From Candidatus Omnitrophota bacterium (GTDB lineage: Bacteria; Omnitrophota; Gorgyraeia; Gygaellales; Profunditerraquicolaceae): DNA of 64,000 bases. Position numbers and translations under genes: made by a program. The DNA is taken from assembly GCA_041653955.1 (NCBI GenBank), contig JBAZEH010000002.1, forward strand, positions 24,380-88,379, written 5' to 3'. Position 1 is the first letter of the stretch. Each line of letters starts with the position of its first letter. The notes beneath the pieces are model-generated. The model searched no databases, was not told where the DNA came from, and saw only the letters and a program-made list of their open reading frames with translations. Shown piece after piece: positions 1,713-38,798 of the stretch.

Positions 1713-1871
1713 ATGGAATATCAGAGTGGTGGATTTGGCGGGCCCAGGGAGATGCATAAGGCAGTATGTTCGGAATGCAAGAAAGAGTGTGAAGTCCCAT
1801 TCAAACCCAGGAATGACCGCCCGATATACTGCAGGGATTGTTATTCAAAGCGCAAGAACGAAGGGCGTTAA
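1713..1871 (+). CDS. small zinc-ribbon protein (52 aa, two CxxC pairs)
   Basis: RBS AGGAGG at 1703-1708, ATG at 1713. Translation MEYQSGGFGGPREMHKAVCSECKKECEVPFKPRNDRPIYCRDCYSKRKNEGR with CxxC..CxxC. Below the ORF-track length cutoff. Confidence 0.6.
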   Translation: MEYQSGGFGGPREMHKAVCSECKKECEVPFKPRNDRPIYCRDCYSKRKNEGR

Positions 1872-2016: not shown

Positions 2017-2730
2017 ATGATAAAGCAATCTATACAGTCGGTGTTTATATGGGTTGTCGGAGTTCTTCTGTTAGTAGTGTTGTTTCTGACTATGGCATTA
2101 CTTTCGGTGCTCCTTTATCCTTTTGACAGGAAACGTAAGATCGTGCACGCACAGTGTTTTTGGTGGGCGGACGCGGTAACGGCCCTGAACCCTTATTGGG
2201 ATGTAAAGGTGAGCGGGCTTGAGAATATAGACCACAAGAGAACATACGTTGCCGTTTCAAACCATCAGAGCCTCGCCGATATCGTGTTGATGTATAAGAC
2301 AAAAATGCAGTTTAAGTGGGTTGCCAAGGATAGCCTGTTTAGGGTGCCTTTGCTCGGATGGAATATGAGCCTTGCCAGGCATATCCGGCTCAGGCGCGGG
2401 AATCTTTCAAGTATCAGGAAGGTATACAGGGAAGCCGGTGAATGGCTGCGCAAGGGTATATCAGTCGTATTCTTTCCGGAAGGGACAAGGGGCAGTGAAG
2501 AAGGGACAGGGGAGTTCCAGAATGGGGCATTCAAGTTGGCGATAAGCAAAAAGGTCCCTATCCTGCCTATTGCGATCACGGGAACGGGAGATGCTATTCC
2601 AAAAGGAAGCTGGCGGTTTACGACCAGGATCTCATGCGCAATAAAGGTTTTACCTCCCATAGAGACCGCAGGATTTCTGCCGGGCGATTTCTCGCGCTTG
2701 CGCGATATGGCCAGGGAAAAATTATCGTAA
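2017..2730 (+). CDS. plsC: 1-acyl-sn-glycerol-3-phosphate acyltransferase
   Basis: NHQSLADI (HX4D acyltransferase motif), FFPEGTRG motif, N-terminal TM helix. Confidence 0.85.
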   Translation: MIKQSIQSVFIWVVGVLLLVVLFLTMALLSVLLYPFDRKRKIVHAQCFWWADAVTALNPYWDVKVSGLENIDHKRTYVAVSNHQSLADIVLMYKTKMQFKWVAKDSLFRVPLLGWNMSLARHIRLRRGNLSSIRKVYREAGEWLRKGISVVFFPEGTRGSEEGTGEFQNGAFKLAISKKVPILPIAITGTGDAIPKGSWRFTTRISCAIKVLPPIETAGFLPGDFSRLRDMAREKLS

Positions 2731-2737
2731 GATCAGT

Positions 2738-3337
2738 ATGAATATTTTTGTGGGTAACTTATCATTCAAGGCCGGTGAAGAGGACCTGAAGAACCTTTTT
2801 AAAAGTTTTGGCGCTGTTGATTCTGTCAGGATCGTGATGGAAAAAAAAGGTAAAAAATCCAGGGGGTTCGGGTTTGTCCAGATGCCTGATGAACAACAGG
2901 CCCTTGCTGCGATAAGCGCCCTGAACGGTAATGAGTTCATGGAGCGCCCCCTTAATGTCAGCCCGGCGCGCTCCAAGCCTGAAGTAGAGCGGGATAAAGG
3001 CGAAGCAAAAGAGCGCCATCTTAAAGCCGATACTAAAGGCCGTAAAGACCCCTGGTATAAGCCGGCTTTTGAGAAGAAAGCAGGAAGATATAAAACAGGG
3101 AGGCGTTCGCGGAGTTTTATGAAGCGGCGCGCCACAACGGGGATAGCCCAGGAGGCTTTGCCTGAGCCTAAGAGCGGGGAGAACCCTATGCGTTGGCGCA
3201 AAAAGCAGGATCAGCCTAAGCCATGGAAGAAGCGGGCAGGCGGTAAGCCCAATCCATTGCGCAGGAACAGGAGGCATTCGCGCCCGCGCCAATCCCTGGT
3301 CGAAAGCCGCAGGAAACCGGGCGGCTATAACAGATGA
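2738..3337 (+). CDS. RRM-domain RNA-binding protein with Arg/Lys-rich C-terminal tail
   Basis: RNP motifs IFVGNLSF (RNP2) and KSRGFGFVQM (RNP1). The basic tail is RRNRRHSRPRQ. Confidence 0.85.
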   Translation: MNIFVGNLSFKAGEEDLKNLFKSFGAVDSVRIVMEKKGKKSRGFGFVQMPDEQQALAAISALNGNEFMERPLNVSPARSKPEVERDKGEAKERHLKADTKGRKDPWYKPAFEKKAGRYKTGRRSRSFMKRRATTGIAQEALPEPKSGENPMRWRKKQDQPKPWKKRAGGKPNPLRRNRRHSRPRQSLVESRRKPGGYNR

Positions 3338-3582
3338 AGTTAAAATTGAACCTTTATCCGGTAGTCCCGGATATGGAAGAAAGGCTTATAGAGATCTTTC
3401 AGGAAGCGGTGGATAACCGCGCAAAGATGCTTGAGATCACTTATGGCGAAGCCGGAGATATTGTCAAGAAGCGCATACTGAATTTTCTGAATAAAAAAGA
3501 GGTCCGCCAGCTTTATTCCCGCTACGAGAAGACGGAAAAGGGGTGGGGGAGGATTTACGTGCATTTTCGCTGGAAAGATTGA
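3334..3582 (+). CDS. hypothetical protein (82 aa)
   Basis: ORF overlaps the RRM gene stop by 4 nt (coupled). No recognisable motif. Confidence 0.45.
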   Translation: MKLKLNLYPVVPDMEERLIEIFQEAVDNRAKMLEITYGEAGDIVKKRILNFLNKKEVRQLYSRYEKTEKGWGRIYVHFRWKD

Positions 3583-3596
3583 GCTTAACTTTTAGG

Positions 3597-3625
3597 TTGA
3601 CAAACCAGTATAAAGGGGGTATACT
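3597..3625 (+). promoter_or_regulatory. sigma70-like promoter TTGACA-17-TATACT (cold-shock leader module copy A)
   Basis: TTGACA at 3597-3602, TATACT at 3620-3625. Near-identical to the promoter at 36863-36890. Confidence 0.6.
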
Positions 3626-3661
3626 TATTTAACAATATAGGTAAAAGATTAGAAGATCGCA

Positions 3662-3705
3662 GGCCGGAAAAGGGCGATAAAGCTAACCTTTCCGGCTTTT
3701 TTCTT
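3662..3705 (+). terminator. leader hairpin + U-tract (attenuator/terminator) inside the 5' region of the zinc-finger/DEAD-box helicase operon
   Basis: ggccggaaaagg..acctttccggc followed by ttttttcttc. The 3' half CTAACCTTTCCGGCTTTTTT is shared with 36945-36964. Confidence 0.6.
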
Positions 3706-3734: not shown

Positions 3735-3881
3735 ATGCAAAAGGTAAAGACATCTCATAAGGGGAGGAAGTGCAGGTTTCCGCGCTGCAAGCAGATCTTA
3801 AGTATATATAACCATGAGGAGTATTGCCATATCCATCTGGGAGAGGTTGGGAATGGATATAAGCCTAAAATACATAAATAA
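3735..3881 (+). CDS. small zinc-finger protein (48 aa)
   Basis: Translation MQKVKTSHKGRKCRFPRCKQILSIYNHEEYCHIHLGEVGNGYKPKIHK with C-x4-C..C-H-x-H. Stop is 2 nt before the helicase ATG. Below the ORF-track cutoff. Confidence 0.5.
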   Translation: MQKVKTSHKGRKCRFPRCKQILSIYNHEEYCHIHLGEVGNGYKPKIHK

Positions 3882-3883
3882 CT

Positions 3884-5149
3884 ATGAGACATGAAACAGT
3901 GAATGTGAATAAAGTTAATGCGCCGCAGGCGCCTAATCAGGCCGGCCGGAGCTTTTACGGGCTTGGTATTGTTCCAAAGATACTGGATATCCTTGAGCGC
4001 ATCAAGTTCAAGGCGCCGACTCCGATCCAGTTCAAGGCTATCCCTCTTGCCATAGAAGGCAAGGATGTTATCGGCATAGCGCAGACCGGGACCGGAAAAA
4101 CACACTCTTTTGCCATACCTATGGTGCAGCGCCTCGTTAATATGAAGGGGGTAGGGCTGGTCCTTGCTCCTACGCGCGAGCTGGCCATACAGATAGAAGA
4201 GGCCTTTCAGGGGATAGCCCGTCCGTTCGGGATGAAGAGCGCCTGTCTTATAGGCGGGGCTCCTATGGAGGCGCAGGTGCAGGCGCTGCGCAAGAATCCG
4301 CGGATAGTTATAGCGACCCCCGGGAGGCTTATTGACCATATGAGCCAGTGGAATTTCATTCCCTCTGAAGTATGTATGCTGGTCCTTGATGAGGCAGACC
4401 GGATGCTTGATATGGGGTTTGCCCCGCAGATAACTAAAATACTAAAATTCCTGCCGAAAGAAAGGCAGACAATGCTGTTTTCCGCGACTATACCAAAAGA
4501 GATCATGCATATAGCCGCTACTTACATGAAGCTTCCGGTATCGGTTGAGATCGCTCCTTCCGGGACAACGGCTGAACGCGTGACCCAGGAATTATTTATC
4601 GTTAATAAAGAAGCCAAGCGCAGGCTCCTTGGAAAACTGCTGGCTCAATACCACGGGCCGGTACTTCTTTTTTCGCGGACAAAACATAACGCGCGTAAGA
4701 TCACTATGTCTATACGTGATATGGGGTATAGCTCCGCGGAGATACATTCTAACCGTTCTCTTAGCCAGCGCCGCGAAGCCCTGGATGGCTTTAAATCAGG
4801 CAGGTATAAGGTTCTCGTTGCAACCGATATAGCCGCAAGAGGCATAGATGTAGCAGGGATAGAGCTGGTTATTAATTATGATATACCCGAAGATGCCGAG
4901 AATTACGTGCATCGTATCGGCCGCACCGCGAGGGCAGGGCATAAGGGGCATGCGATATCTTTTGCCACCCCTGACCAGAGCCGCGATGTGAAGGATATTG
5001 AAAAGCTTATCCGTTCCACTCTCCCCGTGTCAAAACATCCCGAAGTCCCATCCGAAGAGTTCTCCGAATCAATGCAGGCGGCCCCCCGCTATAAAGGTAG
5101 AAGGCCGCAGCAAAACCAGAAACGATATAAGTTCCGCCCTCGCCGCTAA
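3884..5149 (+). CDS. DEAD-box ATP-dependent RNA helicase
   Basis: Q-motif region, AQTGTGKT (motif I), VLDEADRMLDMGF (DEAD), SAT, HRIGRTARAG (motif VI), basic C-terminal tail. Confidence 0.9.
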   Translation: MRHETVNVNKVNAPQAPNQAGRSFYGLGIVPKILDILERIKFKAPTPIQFKAIPLAIEGKDVIGIAQTGTGKTHSFAIPMVQRLVNMKGVGLVLAPTRELAIQIEEAFQGIARPFGMKSACLIGGAPMEAQVQALRKNPRIVIATPGRLIDHMSQWNFIPSEVCMLVLDEADRMLDMGFAPQITKILKFLPKERQTMLFSATIPKEIMHIAATYMKLPVSVEIAPSGTTAERVTQELFIVNKEAKRRLLGKLLAQYHGPVLLFSRTKHNARKITMSIRDMGYSSAEIHSNRSLSQRREALDGFKSGRYKVLVATDIAARGIDVAGIELVINYDIPEDAENYVHRIGRTARAGHKGHAISFATPDQSRDVKDIEKLIRSTLPVSKHPEVPSEEFSESMQAAPRYKGRRPQQNQKRYKFRPRR

Positions 5150-23242: not shown

Positions 23243-23378
23243 TTGACGGACCGTTGTTTTGGGTGTATAAAAATACCAGGGAATAGATTTGGGTTTGGGA
23301 GCTAAAGAAGCTTCCAAAGGCTATTGGATGGTCGGGCCGCCATCTGTGATAATACAGGATGGCGGTCTTTTATTTTTT
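23243..23378 (+). ncRNA. candidate small RNA / leader: promoter TTGACG-17-TATAAA followed ~65 nt later by a strong intrinsic terminator
   Basis: TTGACG at 23243-23248 and TATAAA at 23266-23271. Terminator stem ccgccatc..gatggcgg at 23337-23365 plus tcttttatttttt. Confidence 0.3.
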
Positions 23379-36862: not shown

Positions 36863-36890
36863 TTGACAAATCCAAAAAAGGTGGTATACT
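36863..36890 (+). promoter_or_regulatory. sigma70-like promoter TTGACA-16-TATACT (cold-shock leader module copy B)
   Basis: TTGACA at 36863-36868, TATACT at 36885-36890. Confidence 0.6.
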
Positions 36891-36924
36891 AACGTTGGTA
36901 GTAAATAAGAGATTAGAAAGTCTA

Positions 36925-36964
36925 GGGCCGGGAGGTTTAGATATCTAACCTTTCGGCTTTTTTT
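36925..36964 (+). terminator. leader hairpin + U-tract (attenuator) in the cspA 5' UTR
   Basis: gggccgggagg..aacctttcggc followed by ttttttt. The 3' half is shared with copy A. Confidence 0.6.
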
Positions 36965-37012
36965 GTTTCTGTCGTTATTTACTATAATTCGAAAGAAAGG
37001 AGGAAGTAAATA

Positions 37013-37213
37013 ATGGCAAGAGGAAAAGTAAAGTGGTTCTCAAACCAGAAAGGCTACGGCTTTATCACTCCCGAGTCGGGCAATGATGTATTTGTGCATC
37101 ATAGCGCGATACAAGGCGAGGGTTACAAGTCCTTAGACGAAGGGCAGGAAGTCGAATTCGAGGTGGAGCAGGGCCCTAAAGGTGAACAAGCTACTAAAGT
37201 AGTGAAGTTATAA
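37013..37213 (+). CDS. cspA: cold-shock protein (CspA family)
   Basis: RNP1 KGYGFI, RNP2 VFVHH. 66 aa. Confidence 0.9.
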
Positions 37214-37281: not shown

Positions 37282-37488
37282 ATGCACACAGGCAAGATAA
37301 AGAAGTTAGTGCGTGACAGGGGGTTCGGGTTTATCAGCGATACGGACGGAAGGGAAGTATTCTTTCATCAGTCAAGCCTTCTGGATACAAAATTTGATAT
37401 TCTTAACGAAGAGCAGGCGGTAGAGTTTGAGATAGAGGATTCACCTAAGGGCCCGCGCGCCATCAATGTGCGTATCGCTCAAAAATAA
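37282..37488 (+). CDS. cold-shock domain protein (second Csp paralog)
   Basis: RGFGFI and VFFH motifs. 68 aa. Confidence 0.85.
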   Translation: MHTGKIKKLVRDRGFGFISDTDGREVFFHQSSLLDTKFDILNEEQAVEFEIEDSPKGPRAINVRIAQK

Positions 37489-37511: not shown

Positions 37512-38798
37512 ATGAAAGTAATACTTATAGAACCGGCCGCAGCAGAGGCTAACGTATACAGTAAGTTATGCATGCCTCTTATGGGGCCGGTCTATCTGGG
37601 GACCATACTTAAGAACAGGGGGCATGAGGTCAGTATATATAATGAAGATATGTATACGCCCGATTATTCCAGGCTGGACGCGGATATAATAGGTATCTCT
37701 ATACTTACTTCTACCGCCAGGCGCGGATATGAGATAGCCGGGATGTTCCCGAAAGAGAAGGTGATCATAGGCGGGGTTCATGCCAGCCTTTTGCCCGATG
37801 AGGCGCTTCAATTTGCCAGGCAGGTAGTGGTAGGAGAAGCGGAAGAGGTTATCGCAGATGTAGTAGAAGGCAGGAATAGGGAGCCGATCGTGCAGGGTAC
37901 CCGGCCGCAGGACCTGGATAGCCTGCCTTATCCGGATTTCTCCCTGATAAAAGGTTATAAGGCATCCCCCATAGTCATGCCTATATCTACTTCAAGGGGC
38001 TGCCCTTTTGATTGTATTTTCTGTTCCGTGACAAAGATGTTTGGCCGTGAATACAGGTTCCGCAGCGCGGGAAATGTCATGGGAGAGATAGAATCAAGGA
38101 ACGCGAGGTCTTTTTTCTTTTGCGACGATAATTTTACCGCGCACCCGGAACGCACGCGTGCGCTGCTTGGACTCATGCTGGAACGCAAGGTCCCAAGCTG
38201 GAGCTGTCAGGTGCGCTGCGATGCGGCAAAGGATGATGAACTCCTGGACCTTATGGCGCGCGCCGGATGTTCCGTAGTATGCGTGGGTTTTGAATCCATT
38301 AACCAGAAGACCCTGCAGGCGTATAAGAAGAAACAGAGTGTGGATGATATAATAAAATCTATCCGTTCCTTCCGCAGGAAGAAACTCAGGATACACGGGA
38401 TGTTCGTCCTGGGAGGGGATGATGACAATGAAAAGACCGTATGGGATACCCTTAAGTTCGCAGTAAAAGAGAAGATAGATACCATTCAGATGATGATCCT
38501 TACGCCCGTGCCGGGGACGAAGCTGCATGAAGAGTTGACGAAAGATGACCGCATCCTTAGCCACGATTGGAGCCTGTATGACGGCCAACATGTCGTTTTT
38601 AAACCGAAGTTGATATCGGCTAAGCAGCTGCAGATGAACGTGGTCAGGGCGTATATCAGGTTTTACTCTCTTTCCAAGTCATTATCCCTGCTCATAAGGA
38701 TGCGTTTTCGTAACGCGATGTTCCGTTTCATAGGATACAGGATCATCCACGAATGGGTCCGGCATAACCATAAGATGCACTGGCTGCTTCAGATTTGA
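37512..38798 (+). CDS. B12-binding domain radical SAM protein
   Basis: N-terminal cobalamin-binding-like domain. TSRGCPFDCIFCS (CxxxCxxC). Confidence 0.85.
   Translation: MKVILIEPAAAEANVYSKLCMPLMGPVYLGTILKNRGHEVSIYNEDMYTPDYSRLDADIIGISILTSTARRGYEIAGMFPKEKVIIGGVHASLLPDEALQFARQVVVGEAEEVIADVVEGRNREPIVQGTRPQDLDSLPYPDFSLIKGYKASPIVMPISTSRGCPFDCIFCSVTKMFGREYRFRSAGNVMGEIESRNARSFFFCDDNFTAHPERTRALLGLMLERKVPSWSCQVRCDAAKDDELLDLMARAGCSVVCVGFESINQKTLQAYKKKQSVDDIIKSIRSFRRKKLRIHGMFVLGGDDDNEKTVWDTLKFAVKEKIDTIQMMILTPVPGTKLHEELTKDDRILSHDWSLYDGQHVVFKPKLISAKQLQMNVVRAYIRFYSLSKSLSLLIRMRFRNAMFRFIGYRIIHEWVRHNHKMHWLLQI

Follow-up and report, generated by a model that had tools for sequence, protein, structure and literature searches.

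In model organisms, control of the cold-shock response relies on mRNA stability and translation. For E. coli, Jiang, Fang, Bae and Inouye reportedly proposed in 1996-1998 that the cold box, present at the 5' end of the cspA, cspB, cspG, cspI and csdA (deaD) mRNAs, is a site of CspA-dependent attenuation, and E. coli CspA, CspE and CspC are known for antitermination at intrinsic terminators. In B. subtilis, Csp proteins alter read-through at intrinsic terminators (PMC8307031). With regard to direct sensing by RNA, a passage in PMC4914106 states that all RNA thermometers known at the time regulate translation initiation.

The window analyzed here, a 64-kb stretch of DNA from an Omnitrophota bacterium, carries two copies of an element that invites comparison with these systems. 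Omnitrophota are uncultivated and, to our knowledge, nothing is known of their gene regulation. The two copies have a common architecture consisting of a sigma-70 promoter, a 5' box A(A/G)AGAUUAG, a hairpin with the loop box CUAA and the 3' arm CCUUU(N)CGGC, and a U-tract. Similar to the E. coli cold box, the 5' box is short, conserved and located close to or at the RNA 5' end, and csp and DEAD-box helicase genes have it in common, with AAGAUUAG found in the Csp, Csp2 and Zn-finger/helicase leaders alike. A proposed effect on transcript elongation or attenuation that closes an autoregulatory loop would be a further likeness. However, direct reading reveals no sequence similarity (UGACGUACAGA in the cold box versus AAGAUUAG), RF01766, the Rfam cspA thermoregulator (an enterobacterial mRNA thermosensor) that includes the cold box, gives no meaningful alignment, and the E. 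coli leaders, from a different phylum, are at least 160 nt long and lack a U-tract terminator. In contrast, the Omnitrophota element incorporates a second box, complementary to the first, as well as a canonical terminator.

A match to RF01766, raised for comparison in the original prediction, did not materialize: copy B scored 51.2 bits, below the gathering score of 78, in an alignment carried by the coding sequence, and copy A gave no hit at E values up to 10. RF01766 is likewise the leader of a cspA-like gene, and the CspA subtype described below also has alternative pairings around the Shine-Dalgarno sequence (SD) and AUG, but RF01766 acts on translation and stability and not via a terminator. 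Csp-modulated terminators (E. coli; B. subtilis CspB/CspD, PMC8307031) are comparable in that Csps act on nascent hairpins and csp UTRs carry 'cold shock boxes', although the terminators affected there are not dedicated conserved leaders of csp or helicase genes. With PyrR, TRAP, T-box and riboswitch platforms the element has in common a promoter, a 5' strand able to pair with the terminator 3' arm, a putative anti-antiterminator hairpin (P1) and genes dependent on read-through, but it is far smaller than these classical attenuators (~55 nt), with no leader peptide, recognizable aptamer or known effector. In an Rfam 15 scan at gathering score neither copy matched any family, the only hit in the window being nhaA-I at 23291-23345, and our literature search found no description of such a leader.

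RESULTS

Two copies of the element in the window

Both copies were located where the original prediction had placed them, copy A at 3597-3702 and copy B at 36863-36964. The features of the two loci are as follows.

3597-3625, forward strand: copy A promoter, -35 TTGACA (3597-3602), 17-nt spacer, -10 TATACT (3620-3625), predicted start near 3632
3644-3652, forward strand: copy A 5' box AAAGAUUAG, putative 5' strand of P1 or, alternatively, of the antiterminator helix
3653-3662, forward strand: copy A variable segment X AAGAUCGCAG, with GAUC a possible P1 partner of GAUU in the 5' box and AUCGC (3656-3660) able to pair with loop GCGAU (3674-3678)
3663-3702, forward strand: copy A predicted intrinsic terminator P2 (fold, covariance model 60.5 bits, stem covariation), with 5' arm GCCGGAAAAGG (3663-3673), loop (3674-3686) ending in CUAA (3683-3686), 3' arm CCUUUCCGGC (3687-3696) and U-tract (3697-3702)
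3735-3881, forward strand: small Zn-finger ORF of 48 aa, reached first by read-through of copy A, starting 33 nt after the U-tract
3884-5149, forward strand: DEAD-box RNA helicase (DEAD 8.6e-49, Helicase_C 1.5e-28), 2 nt after the Zn-finger ORF
36863-36890, forward strand: copy B promoter, -35 TTGACA (36863-36868), 16-nt spacer, -10 TATACT (36885-36890), predicted start near 36897
36897-36907, forward strand: copy B 5' extension GGUAGUAAAUA, a feature of the CspA subtype only
36908-36916, forward strand: copy B 5' box AGAGAUUAG (sequence reading, covariance model)
36917-36926, forward strand: copy B variable segment X AAAGUCUAGG, complementary to its own loop through GUCUA (36920-36924) and UAGAU (36938-36942)
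36927-36964, forward strand: copy B predicted intrinsic terminator P2 (fold, covariance model 53 bits), with 5' arm GCCGGGAGG (36927-36935), loop (36936-36948) ending in CUAA (36945-36948), 3' arm CCUUUCGGC (36949-36957) and U-tract (36958-36964)
36973-37015, forward strand: second hairpin of copy B in the cspA 5' UTR, in which CGUUAUUUACU pairs with the AUG-containing AGUAAAUAAUG, with the SD in the loop
37013-37213, forward strand: CspA-like cold-shock-domain protein, 66 aa (CSD 3.8e-30)
37282-37488, forward strand: second cold-shock-domain protein, 68 aa, MHTGKIKK... (domain search)

As had been noted, the promoters are near-identical and close to the sigma-70 consensus, both with -35 TTGACA and -10 TATACT. 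A promoter scan scored 11 out of 12 consensus positions for each copy, and the promoter string had zero chance matches in shuffled sequence. The promoter string given earlier for copy B contained a surplus A, the true spacer being 16 nt and not 17, and the terminated RNA is predicted to be ~70 nt long as opposed to the ~85 nt originally proposed. The block GATTAGAANNTCNNNGGCCGG, common to both copies, occurs exactly twice in the 64 kb; at three or fewer mismatches there are 3 matches in the window versus 1.05 expected. A covariance model run over the window found no true third copy. The candidate at 1874-1928 (26.8 bits) has neither boxes nor promoter and is an ordinary terminator that follows a small ORF; its orthologues in L001 and L029 are of the same kind.

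The hairpin of copy A has a predicted energy of -22.5 kcal/mol (z -2.9 versus shuffles) and that of copy B -21.6 kcal/mol (z -3.3). Across the family, pairing in the P2 stem amounts to 89.5%, two positions vary in a compensatory manner (G-C/A-U; C-G/U-A/G-C), and every U-tract column reads T in no fewer than 69 of the 71 covariance-model hits. P2 thus has the GC-rich stem-loop followed by a U run of a predicted intrinsic terminator; a simple terminator scanner missed both copies because the loop exceeds 8 nt.

The genes 3' of the copies are also those originally named, the Zn-finger ORF and DEAD-box helicase for copy A and a cold-shock-domain protein for copy B. No Pfam family above threshold and no PDB relative was found for the Zn-finger protein, whose homologues number only ~20 and are annotated as hypothetical. 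An exact-sequence lookup of the helicase protein returned no contig on record. The second cold-shock-domain gene has no leader of its own in the window, and in other genomes its own copy of the element precedes it.

The element is conserved upstream of cold-shock and helicase genes in Omnitrophota

A check put forward earlier, that the module should also precede csp and DEAD-box genes in related genomes, came out clearly in its favor. The element was found at 66 of 80 Omnitrophota helicase loci and not in the other 14, within the sequence examined; these 80 loci and the window together gave 71 covariance-model hits. A pattern search recovered the element from at least 119 metagenome contigs as well, almost always 5' of Zn-finger/helicase or csp genes, for a total of 181 elements (about 160 distinct) from Omnitrophota genomes and metagenome contigs. 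When the search was blind to the downstream gene, 104 out of 111 callable ORFs were the Zn-finger ORF plus helicase, the helicase alone or one of the two Csps; rarer downstream genes were PlsC-like acyltransferase and FabK-like genes. Based on these sequence comparisons, the two copies are members of a conserved family across Omnitrophota and not the result of a local duplication. The earlier description of the module as duplicated is misleading, as the copies represent separate, individually conserved subtypes of an old family.

A promoter of the form TTGAC-N16-20-TAnAnT precedes 156 of the 181 elements. The distance from the -10 to the 5' box has a mode of 7 nt (44 cases), which often puts the 5' box right at the start of the RNA. 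At the other end, the distance from the U-tract to the start codon in the Zn-finger type has a median of 31 nt and a minimum of 12, and is 30 nt or less in 50 out of 104 cases, leaving no space for a second promoter, so that transcription of these genes has to pass through the terminator. Likewise, a scan of the copy B region found no promoter on the forward strand between the terminator and cspA. The element probably sets the amount of transcription that reaches the cold-shock and helicase genes.

This spacing bears on the proposal, made earlier as an alternative, that the element is a trans-acting independent sRNA family of ~55-70 nt with an incidental upstream position. Each copy does have its own promoter and terminator, and attenuator-derived RNAs can work in trans in other bacteria (PMC6614838). 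However, the copies have a fixed orientation and a fixed place immediately 5' of one recurring set of gene families. In half of the Zn-finger type, the element stops at most 30 nt short of the start codon, with no room for a promoter, and the 5' end of the CspA-subtype RNA complements post-terminator sequence, which is meaningful only in a read-through transcript. The need for read-through, together with the helix described below that competes with the terminator, favors a cis-acting attenuator over a free-standing sRNA, which we consider very improbable.

Two invariant boxes may form a helix that competes with the terminator

Positions G4, U6, U7, A8 and G9 of the 5' box are invariant in 71 of 71 covariance-model hits, and GAUUAG and CUAACCUU are invariant in all 71 or nearly so, the model applied to L001-L080 having been trained on box-containing sequences; the pattern search demanded both boxes, so box conservation in L081-L199 is partly by construction. 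The 5' box and the loop box with the upper 3' arm are reverse complements at 8 of 9 positions, with a conserved A.C mismatch. An alternative helix can therefore be drawn between the 5' box and CUAACCUUU, of 4 bp, the A.C mismatch and a further 4 bp, that captures the CCUUU of the terminator. RNAs ending after CCUUU were predicted to fold into this helix in 8 of 9 test cases from different subtypes, and RNAalifold returned it as the consensus in two alignments. It is 98.7% paired, the sole variation being A to G opposite U; its base is built from two invariant boxes and hence displays no compensatory covariation. The invariance of the boxes points to a role beyond pairing, for example protein contact.

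We also compared segment X with the 5' half of the P2 loop (Y). Pairing of X with its own partner averaged -1.53 kcal/mol versus -1.09 kcal/mol with swapped partners (1 in 5000 permutations), a 4-mer complement was present in 0.52 of own pairs versus 0.25 of crossed pairs, and double changes were found in all 5 pairs. The copy B-type core GTCTA pairs with its own loop at a frequency of 0.83 versus 0.07 with loops of other subtypes. On the negative side, only 58.5% of cells pair in a fixed register, a minimum free energy shuffle and swap test revealed no clear excess of X:Y pairing (0.50-0.60 versus 0.59 native, at the same energy), and the large subtype with the arm CCGCCAAGG has no X:Y pairing. 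Overall, statistical support for the X:Y pairing in these alignments is moderate. An H-type pseudoknot, with P2 and a helix between the 5' end and the loop formed together, was set aside as sterically unlikely, since the geometry leaves no linker between CUAA and CCUUU.

Computed energies favor the terminator form by 9-11 kcal/mol at 10-37°C. Thermodynamics alone would thus always predict termination, the terminator form being more stable at all temperatures computed. With an antiterminator so much weaker than the terminator, control would be kinetic or factor-assisted.

Additional pairings in the CspA subtype

Copy B has further complementarity that surrounds the terminator. The 5' extension GGUAGUAAAUA complements the post-terminator sequence UUAUUUACUA and is also nearly identical to the start-codon region. 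The GGUAGUAAAUA:UUAUUUACUA helix (P0) is 97% paired with no covariation, and no conserved complementarity for a P0-like enclosing helix was seen by eye in copy A or the Zn-finger subtype. By this comparison P0 seems to be specific to the CspA subtype. The fold of 36896-37020 has a z score of -4.8, and the second hairpin in the cspA 5' UTR is conserved in CspA-type orthologues. A second TATAAT upstream of cspA, suggested earlier, is indeed present as a string at 36983-36988, but a promoter role is not supported, as it has no -35 and lies inside the conserved hairpin, with CGUUAUUUACU extending into it.

DISCUSSION

The original reading of the module as a transcription-attenuation leader is supported by its conservation, by the 12-30 nt between terminator and start codon at many loci and by the competing helix. 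We consider it probable that the element is a cis-acting terminator/antiterminator attenuator of an Omnitrophota cold-shock and RNA-chaperone regulon. In the mechanism that we propose, a strong near-consensus promoter would fire constantly and the first 55-70 nt of RNA would adopt one of two mutually exclusive folds. In the terminator form, the 5' box would pair with X (P1), and the GC-rich P2 and U-tract would halt RNA polymerase. In the antiterminator form, the 5' box would instead pair with the loop box and upper P2 3' arm, withdrawing CCUUU from the terminator; in about half of the sequences X may additionally pair with the 5' half of the P2 loop. All of the antiterminator has been made when the last five terminator bases are still missing, so it would form first, and given the 9-11 kcal/mol advantage of the terminator form, termination would require a fast refold. 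Cold, or scarcity of free RNA chaperone, would slow this refold and allow the polymerase to read through, and the resulting Csp proteins and helicase would restore fast refolding and termination in a homeostatic loop. We infer the signal, which may be cold, Csp or the Zn-finger/helicase pair, as well as its direction and the formation of the helix in vivo.

A possible, though unlikely, alternative is sequence-specific protein-mediated antitermination or attenuation, where the boxes would be putative binding sites instead of, or besides, pairing partners. Candidate binders are either Csp paralogue, the small and basic Zn-finger protein whose gene shares a transcript with that of the helicase, and a neighboring RRM protein. 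A protein on CUAACCUUUR would block the hairpin, with a positive effect, and one on the 5' box would free CCUUU, giving negative autoregulation similar to the E. coli cold box. Consistent with protein binding, the boxes are invariant, in contrast to a covarying terminator stem and a drifting X segment and loop, a degree of constraint that exceeds the needs of pairing. Furthermore, the loop box variant CUGACC is found only alongside the 5' box variant GUUUAG, the L085 and L089 variants retain both boxes despite a decayed terminator stem, and the regulated operons encode RNA-binding proteins. ACCUUUG/A also resembles the U-rich heptamers favored by B. subtilis CspB, but Csp proteins are generally of low sequence specificity. 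Csps do change terminator read-through (PMC8307031). The Zn-finger protein, on the other hand, has no characterized relatives, and protein binding leaves the reverse complementarity of the boxes unexplained. It is compatible with the two-fold model and may be layered onto it.

Somewhat less likely again, in our estimation, is that the attenuator operates as a protein-independent, co-transcriptional 'cold-on' RNA thermosensor, in which the AU-rich, mismatched antiterminator would outlast the time available for terminator formation in the cold, turning on an entire cold-shock regulon through intrinsic termination, and which would double as a sensor of RNA-chaperone capacity, as Csp and the helicase would accelerate the refold. 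Such an element would resemble RNA thermometers in its possible direct sensing of temperature by RNA structure, but would differ from them in acting on transcription termination and in switching on in the cold.

Because the terminator form is always the thermodynamic optimum, and P1 is in many copies located right at the 5' end, the element could also be a constitutive leaky terminator with a stabilizing 5' hairpin, giving fixed low read-through and protection of the mRNA 5' end with no sensing. We regard this as improbable, as a fixed damper needs no two invariant, mutually complementary boxes, its restriction to one functional gene set would be unexpected, and a consensus-strength promoter followed by a strong terminator would seem wasteful unless read-through is regulated. 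A small-molecule riboswitch with an aptamer made from the two boxes would account for the conserved core, the terminator expression platform and the alternative pairing, but can practically be dismissed given a tiny core of two mutually pairing boxes of 6-9 nt, the lack of an Rfam riboswitch match, and a regulon of RNA chaperones, helicase and lipid genes and not a metabolic pathway or transporter. A leader-peptide attenuator was rejected by direct reading, as the leader has no SD, start codon or conserved frame and UAG lies inside the invariant box.

The cis-acting attenuator that we favor is readily accessible, since a small element (~55 nt) with sigma-70 consensus promoters and a canonical terminator is testable with E. 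coli RNA polymerase or a reporter. If read-through is intrinsically temperature-dependent, the element would be the first of a new type of RNA thermometer, and synthetic biology would gain a compact part that is induced by cold. The element defines a regulon from sequence alone, made up of two Csps, the Zn-finger/DEAD-box helicase pair and lipid-remodeling genes, and suggests that the response of Omnitrophota to cold shock and RNA-folding stress is controlled by premature transcription termination.

Two copies of a promoter-leader-terminator element

Direct reading of the sequence confirmed both elements of the original prediction, here called copies A and B, each with a promoter, a 5' box A(A/G)AGAUUAG, a hairpin (P2; loop box CUAA, 3' arm CCUUU(N)CGGC) and a U-tract. 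ORF and domain calls also bore out the genes expected behind them, a small Zn-finger ORF and a DEAD-box helicase for copy A and a CSD gene for copy B.

Copies A and B and neighbouring genes in the window
2017-2730, +, PlsC-like acyltransferase, upstream of copy A
2738-3337, +, RRM-type RNA-binding protein, upstream of copy A
3334-3582, +, Smr-domain protein, immediately upstream of copy A
3597-3602, +, copy A -35 TTGACA, spacer 17 nt
3620-3625, +, copy A -10 TATACT
3644-3652, +, copy A 5' box AAAGAUUAG
3663-3673, +, copy A hairpin 5' arm GCCGGAAAAGG
3683-3686, +, copy A loop box CUAA
3687-3696, +, copy A hairpin 3' arm CCUUUCCGGC
3697-3702, +, copy A U-tract
3735-3881, +, Zn-finger ORF, 48 aa, downstream of copy A
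3884-5149, +, DEAD-box helicase, after the Zn-finger ORF
36863-36868, +, copy B -35 TTGACA, spacer 16 nt
36885-36890, +, copy B -10 TATACT
36908-36916, +, copy B 5' box AGAGAUUAG
36927-36935, +, copy B hairpin 5' arm GCCGGGAGG
36945-36948, +, copy B loop box CUAA
36949-36957, +, copy B hairpin 3' arm CCUUUCGGC
36958-36964, +, copy B U-tract
37013-37213, +, CSD protein, downstream of copy B
37282-37488, +, second CSD protein, after the first
37512-38798, +, B12-binding radical SAM protein, directly 3' of the two csp genes

Both promoters match the consensus at 11 of 12 positions in a promoter scan, with 0 chance matches to the promoter string expected in 64 kb; the promoter first given for copy B is present, but its string carries one A in excess. 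The block GATTAGAANNTCNNNGGCCGG, common to both copies, has only two perfect matches in 64 kb, and on folding the hairpins beat shuffles (z -2.9 for copy A, -3.3 for copy B). The predicted terminated RNA is ~70 nt long, not ~85 nt as proposed.

A family of leaders in Omnitrophota

Helicase orthologues (73-87% identity) were found in 80 genome contigs, labelled Candidatus Omnitrophota or, in third-party assemblies, 'uncultured Planctomycetales'. Conservation upstream of csp/DEAD-box genes in relatives, a check named in the original prediction, is seen at most of these helicase loci (L001-L080), which carry the same module in the order TTGACA-17-TATAAT, (A)AAGAUUAGRR, GCCGY-AAAGG, loop with terminal ACUAA, CCUUU-RCGGY and U-tract. 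No element was found in the flanking sequence covered at 14 of the 80, at several of which the sequence ends early or the Zn-finger gene lies inside a longer operon. A metagenome scan with the pattern AGATTAG-N18-48-CTAACCTTT-N0-1-CGGNTTTT, which in part imposes the motif conservation of the resulting set, gave matches in at least 119 contigs (L081-L199); the elements from all sources number at least 181, ~160 of them distinct. A covariance model (CM) trained on 90 collected elements, all box-containing, returned only copies A and B in the window (60.5 and 53 bits); the 80 genome loci gave 69 matches with E no higher than 1e-4. We rejected 1874-1928 (CM 26.8 bits) as a third member; it is a terminator of the usual kind that follows a small ORF and has neither promoter nor boxes. 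L098 carries an element identical to copy A, and L001 one closely related to it; copy B falls in a 'CspA subtype' that is conserved in its own right (L005, L055, L103, L169, L198 and others). Because each groups with different conserved relatives, they are old paralogues of one motif family and not the local duplication first suggested.

To survey targets blind to the downstream gene, we scored the first same-strand ORF with a Shine-Dalgarno (SD) sequence behind 121 pattern-derived elements (matches listed). The target was the Zn-finger ORF in 65, the helicase directly in 7, a CspA-like protein in 21, a second Csp type (MHTGKIKK...) in 11, a FabK-like gene in 1 and another gene in 6, and 10 elements lay at a contig end. 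Thus 104 of 111 callable cases among the matches listed had a Zn-finger/helicase or Csp target. A PlsC-like acyltransferase is a further target in the genome set; in L023, for example, the leader stands in front of an operon of plsC, the Zn-finger ORF and the helicase. From what Csp proteins and DEAD-box helicases are known to do, we infer that these targets, with the neighbours of copy A in the window, are the gene set of a cold-shock or RNA-structure stress regulon.

Several neighbouring features recur. The acyltransferase gene elsewhere has its own leader copy or is the first gene of an operon with the Zn-finger ORF and helicase (L009, L023, L043), and in L165 the radical SAM gene again lies behind a csp region under leader control. 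Several genomes encode, beside the helicase/acyltransferase cluster, a small Cys-rich protein (...KECEVPFKP..DRPIYCRDCYSKRK...; window 1713-1871, +; L023 5213-5371). Its gene in the window precedes the 1874-1928 terminator, which has a stem, CCGCAAGG/CCUUGCGG, similar to leader P2. An nhaA-I (Na+) riboswitch (RF03057; 23291-23345, +; 53.3 bits, gathering score 37) is the sole Rfam gathering-level match in the window. The Zn-finger protein has no relative in Pfam or PDB. Its ORF starts with ATG in the window; the aligned start codon of 104 orthologues among L001-L199 is ATC in 42, ATT in 31 and ATG in 26, each 4-6 nt 3' of a GGAGGTG Shine-Dalgarno. We take this as a sign of widespread, infC-like AUC/AUU initiation, and non-ATG starts probably explain why gene callers logged only ~20 homologues, all 'hypothetical'.

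Promoter spacing and the need for read-through

In the Zn-finger type, the U-tract ends a median of 31 nt from the start codon (minimum 12; at most 30 nt in 50 of 104). A gap of 30 nt or less leaves no space for a promoter and 5' UTR, so transcription of the genes behind it has to pass the terminator. A recognisable -35/-10 lies upstream of 156 of 181 elements. The distance from the -10 to AGAUUAG has its mode at 7 nt (44 cases), placing the 5' box at the extreme RNA 5' end; in other elements, both window copies among them, an extension of 12-29 nt precedes it. Judged by sequence, a consensus-strength promoter, an immediate strong terminator and read-through-dependent genes make up the anatomy of an attenuator.

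Predicted mutually exclusive RNA structures

In a CM alignment of 71 matches found through helicase synteny (A3), P2 is 89.5% paired with covariation at two positions (G-C, G-U and A-U at one; C-G, U-A, U-G and G-C at the other). A local 5' hairpin, P1, pairs AAGAUU with an AAUCUU-like variable segment after the 5' box (X) and is 80% paired; its variation is one-sided because the 5' strand is invariant. All 71 matches agree at 5'-box positions G4, U6, U7, A8 and G9 and at the C, U, A, C and U of CUAACCUU. The boxes are mutually reverse-complementary (AAAG:CUUU, an A.C mismatch, UUAG:CUAA), and the alternative box:box helix is 98.7% paired, with A to G opposite U as sole variation, and is the RNAalifold consensus in two independent alignments. 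It would exclude P2 because it takes CCUUU of the terminator 3' arm. For RNAs ending after CCUUU, ahead of the last CGGC, it is the MFE structure in 8 of 9 test sequences. There it is lengthened by pairing of X with the 5' half of the P2 loop (Y), in pairs that vary with subtype: AUCGC:GCGAU in copy A, GUCUA:UAGAU in copy B, and AACUU:AAGUU, AUCAU:AUGAU and UCUU:AAGA in further subtypes. At full length, the MFE fold is in every case the terminator form, which beats the best UUAG:CUAA-containing fold by 9-11 kcal/mol at 37, 25 and 10 C.

The complementarity of the box:box base helix is real and without covariation. Sequence comparison gives moderate support to X:Y pairing. Own partners give -1.53 kcal/mol versus -1.09 for swapped ones, as low in 1 of 5000 permutations, a statistic that overstates independence given the phylogenetic relatedness of the sequences; a complementary 4-mer occurs in 0.52 of own versus 0.25 of crossed pairs. 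All five pairs show double changes, with a covariation score above 500 of 500 shuffles. An MFE-based shuffle test of X:Y gave almost no excess, only 58.5% of cells are paired in fixed register, and the pairing is absent from the CCGCCAAGG subtype.

Two variants were also observed. A CUGACC loop box occurs solely with a GUUUAG 5' box (3/3; L060 3771-3827, L015 842-894, L029 567-618), and GUUUAG is also found alongside the usual CUAACC. This is not a simple compensatory pair, and it hints at a contact beyond Watson-Crick pairing. In L085 (827-878) and L089, both metagenomic, the boxes and X:Y complementarity are kept upstream of a divergent Zn-finger ORF (M.KKLKTSA.GRKC...) and the terminator stem has decayed (MFE -6 kcal/mol, no better than shuffles).

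A putative second layer in copy B

RNAs of the CspA subtype are predicted to begin with (N)GUAGUAAAUAA (36897-36907), which is complementary to UUAUUUACUA just past the terminator (within 36973-36988). Over 14 sequences the pairing in this helix is 97%, without covariation, and its duplex energy is -10 to -19 kcal/mol in ~20 of 25. UUAUUUACUA also pairs with UAGUAAAUAAUG around the AUG in a conserved hairpin with the SD in its loop (z -4.8). We note that GUAGUAAAUAA is near-identical to the start-codon region AAGUAAAUAAUG (37004-37015, +), both being complementary to CGUUAUUUACUAUAAU (36973-36988) downstream of the terminator. Competition among these three segments could control whether read-through transcripts are translated, and looks like a second, translational switch confined to them, functionally like the E. 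coli cspA mRNA thermosensor without homology to it. The 'second TATAAT' of the original prediction is the tip of the UUAUUUACUA strand and has no -35 in the promoter scan. Some orthologues (L109, L134, L192) carry large structured insertions within the cspA-leader hairpin.

A model for conditional termination

A two-state attenuator would account for these findings. With the terminator formed, the pairings would be 5' box:X (P1) and P2; with the antiterminator formed, they would be 5' box:CUAACCUUU and X:Y. Each segment would have a partner in either state. The antiterminator is complete ahead of the terminator yet far less stable, so termination would need a rapid refold with polymerase at the U-tract. 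Cold would slow strand exchange and stabilise the AU-rich helix, favouring read-through, as might too little free RNA chaperone; the newly made Csp proteins and helicase would then bring termination back. Cold or RNA-chaperone shortage is our best inference for the signal. Such an attenuator would parallel the autoregulation proposed for the E. coli cold box. The mechanism also fits reports that Csp proteins alter read-through at intrinsic terminators and that csp leaders bear conserved boxes (PMC8307031).

The main rival, or an added layer, is that a protein also reads the boxes. Their strict invariance argues for this, as do the A.C mismatch, itself conserved, and the linkage of the GUUUAG and CUGACC variants. 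Short terminator-to-start spacers and a fixed position ahead of genes make the sRNA initially offered as an alternative unlikely.

Neither copy matches a family in Rfam 15, and our literature searches turned up no account of a leader of this kind or of how Omnitrophota regulate cold shock. Among known systems, the element comes nearest to the E. coli cold box, to classical terminator/antiterminator leaders and to the effects of Csp proteins on terminators. It differs from these in sequence, very small size and phylum, and in that a canonical terminator forms the core of this csp/helicase leader. PMC4914106 states that the RNA thermometers known at that time all act on translation; by that account a cold-responsive terminator switch, if true, would be new among RNA thermometers.
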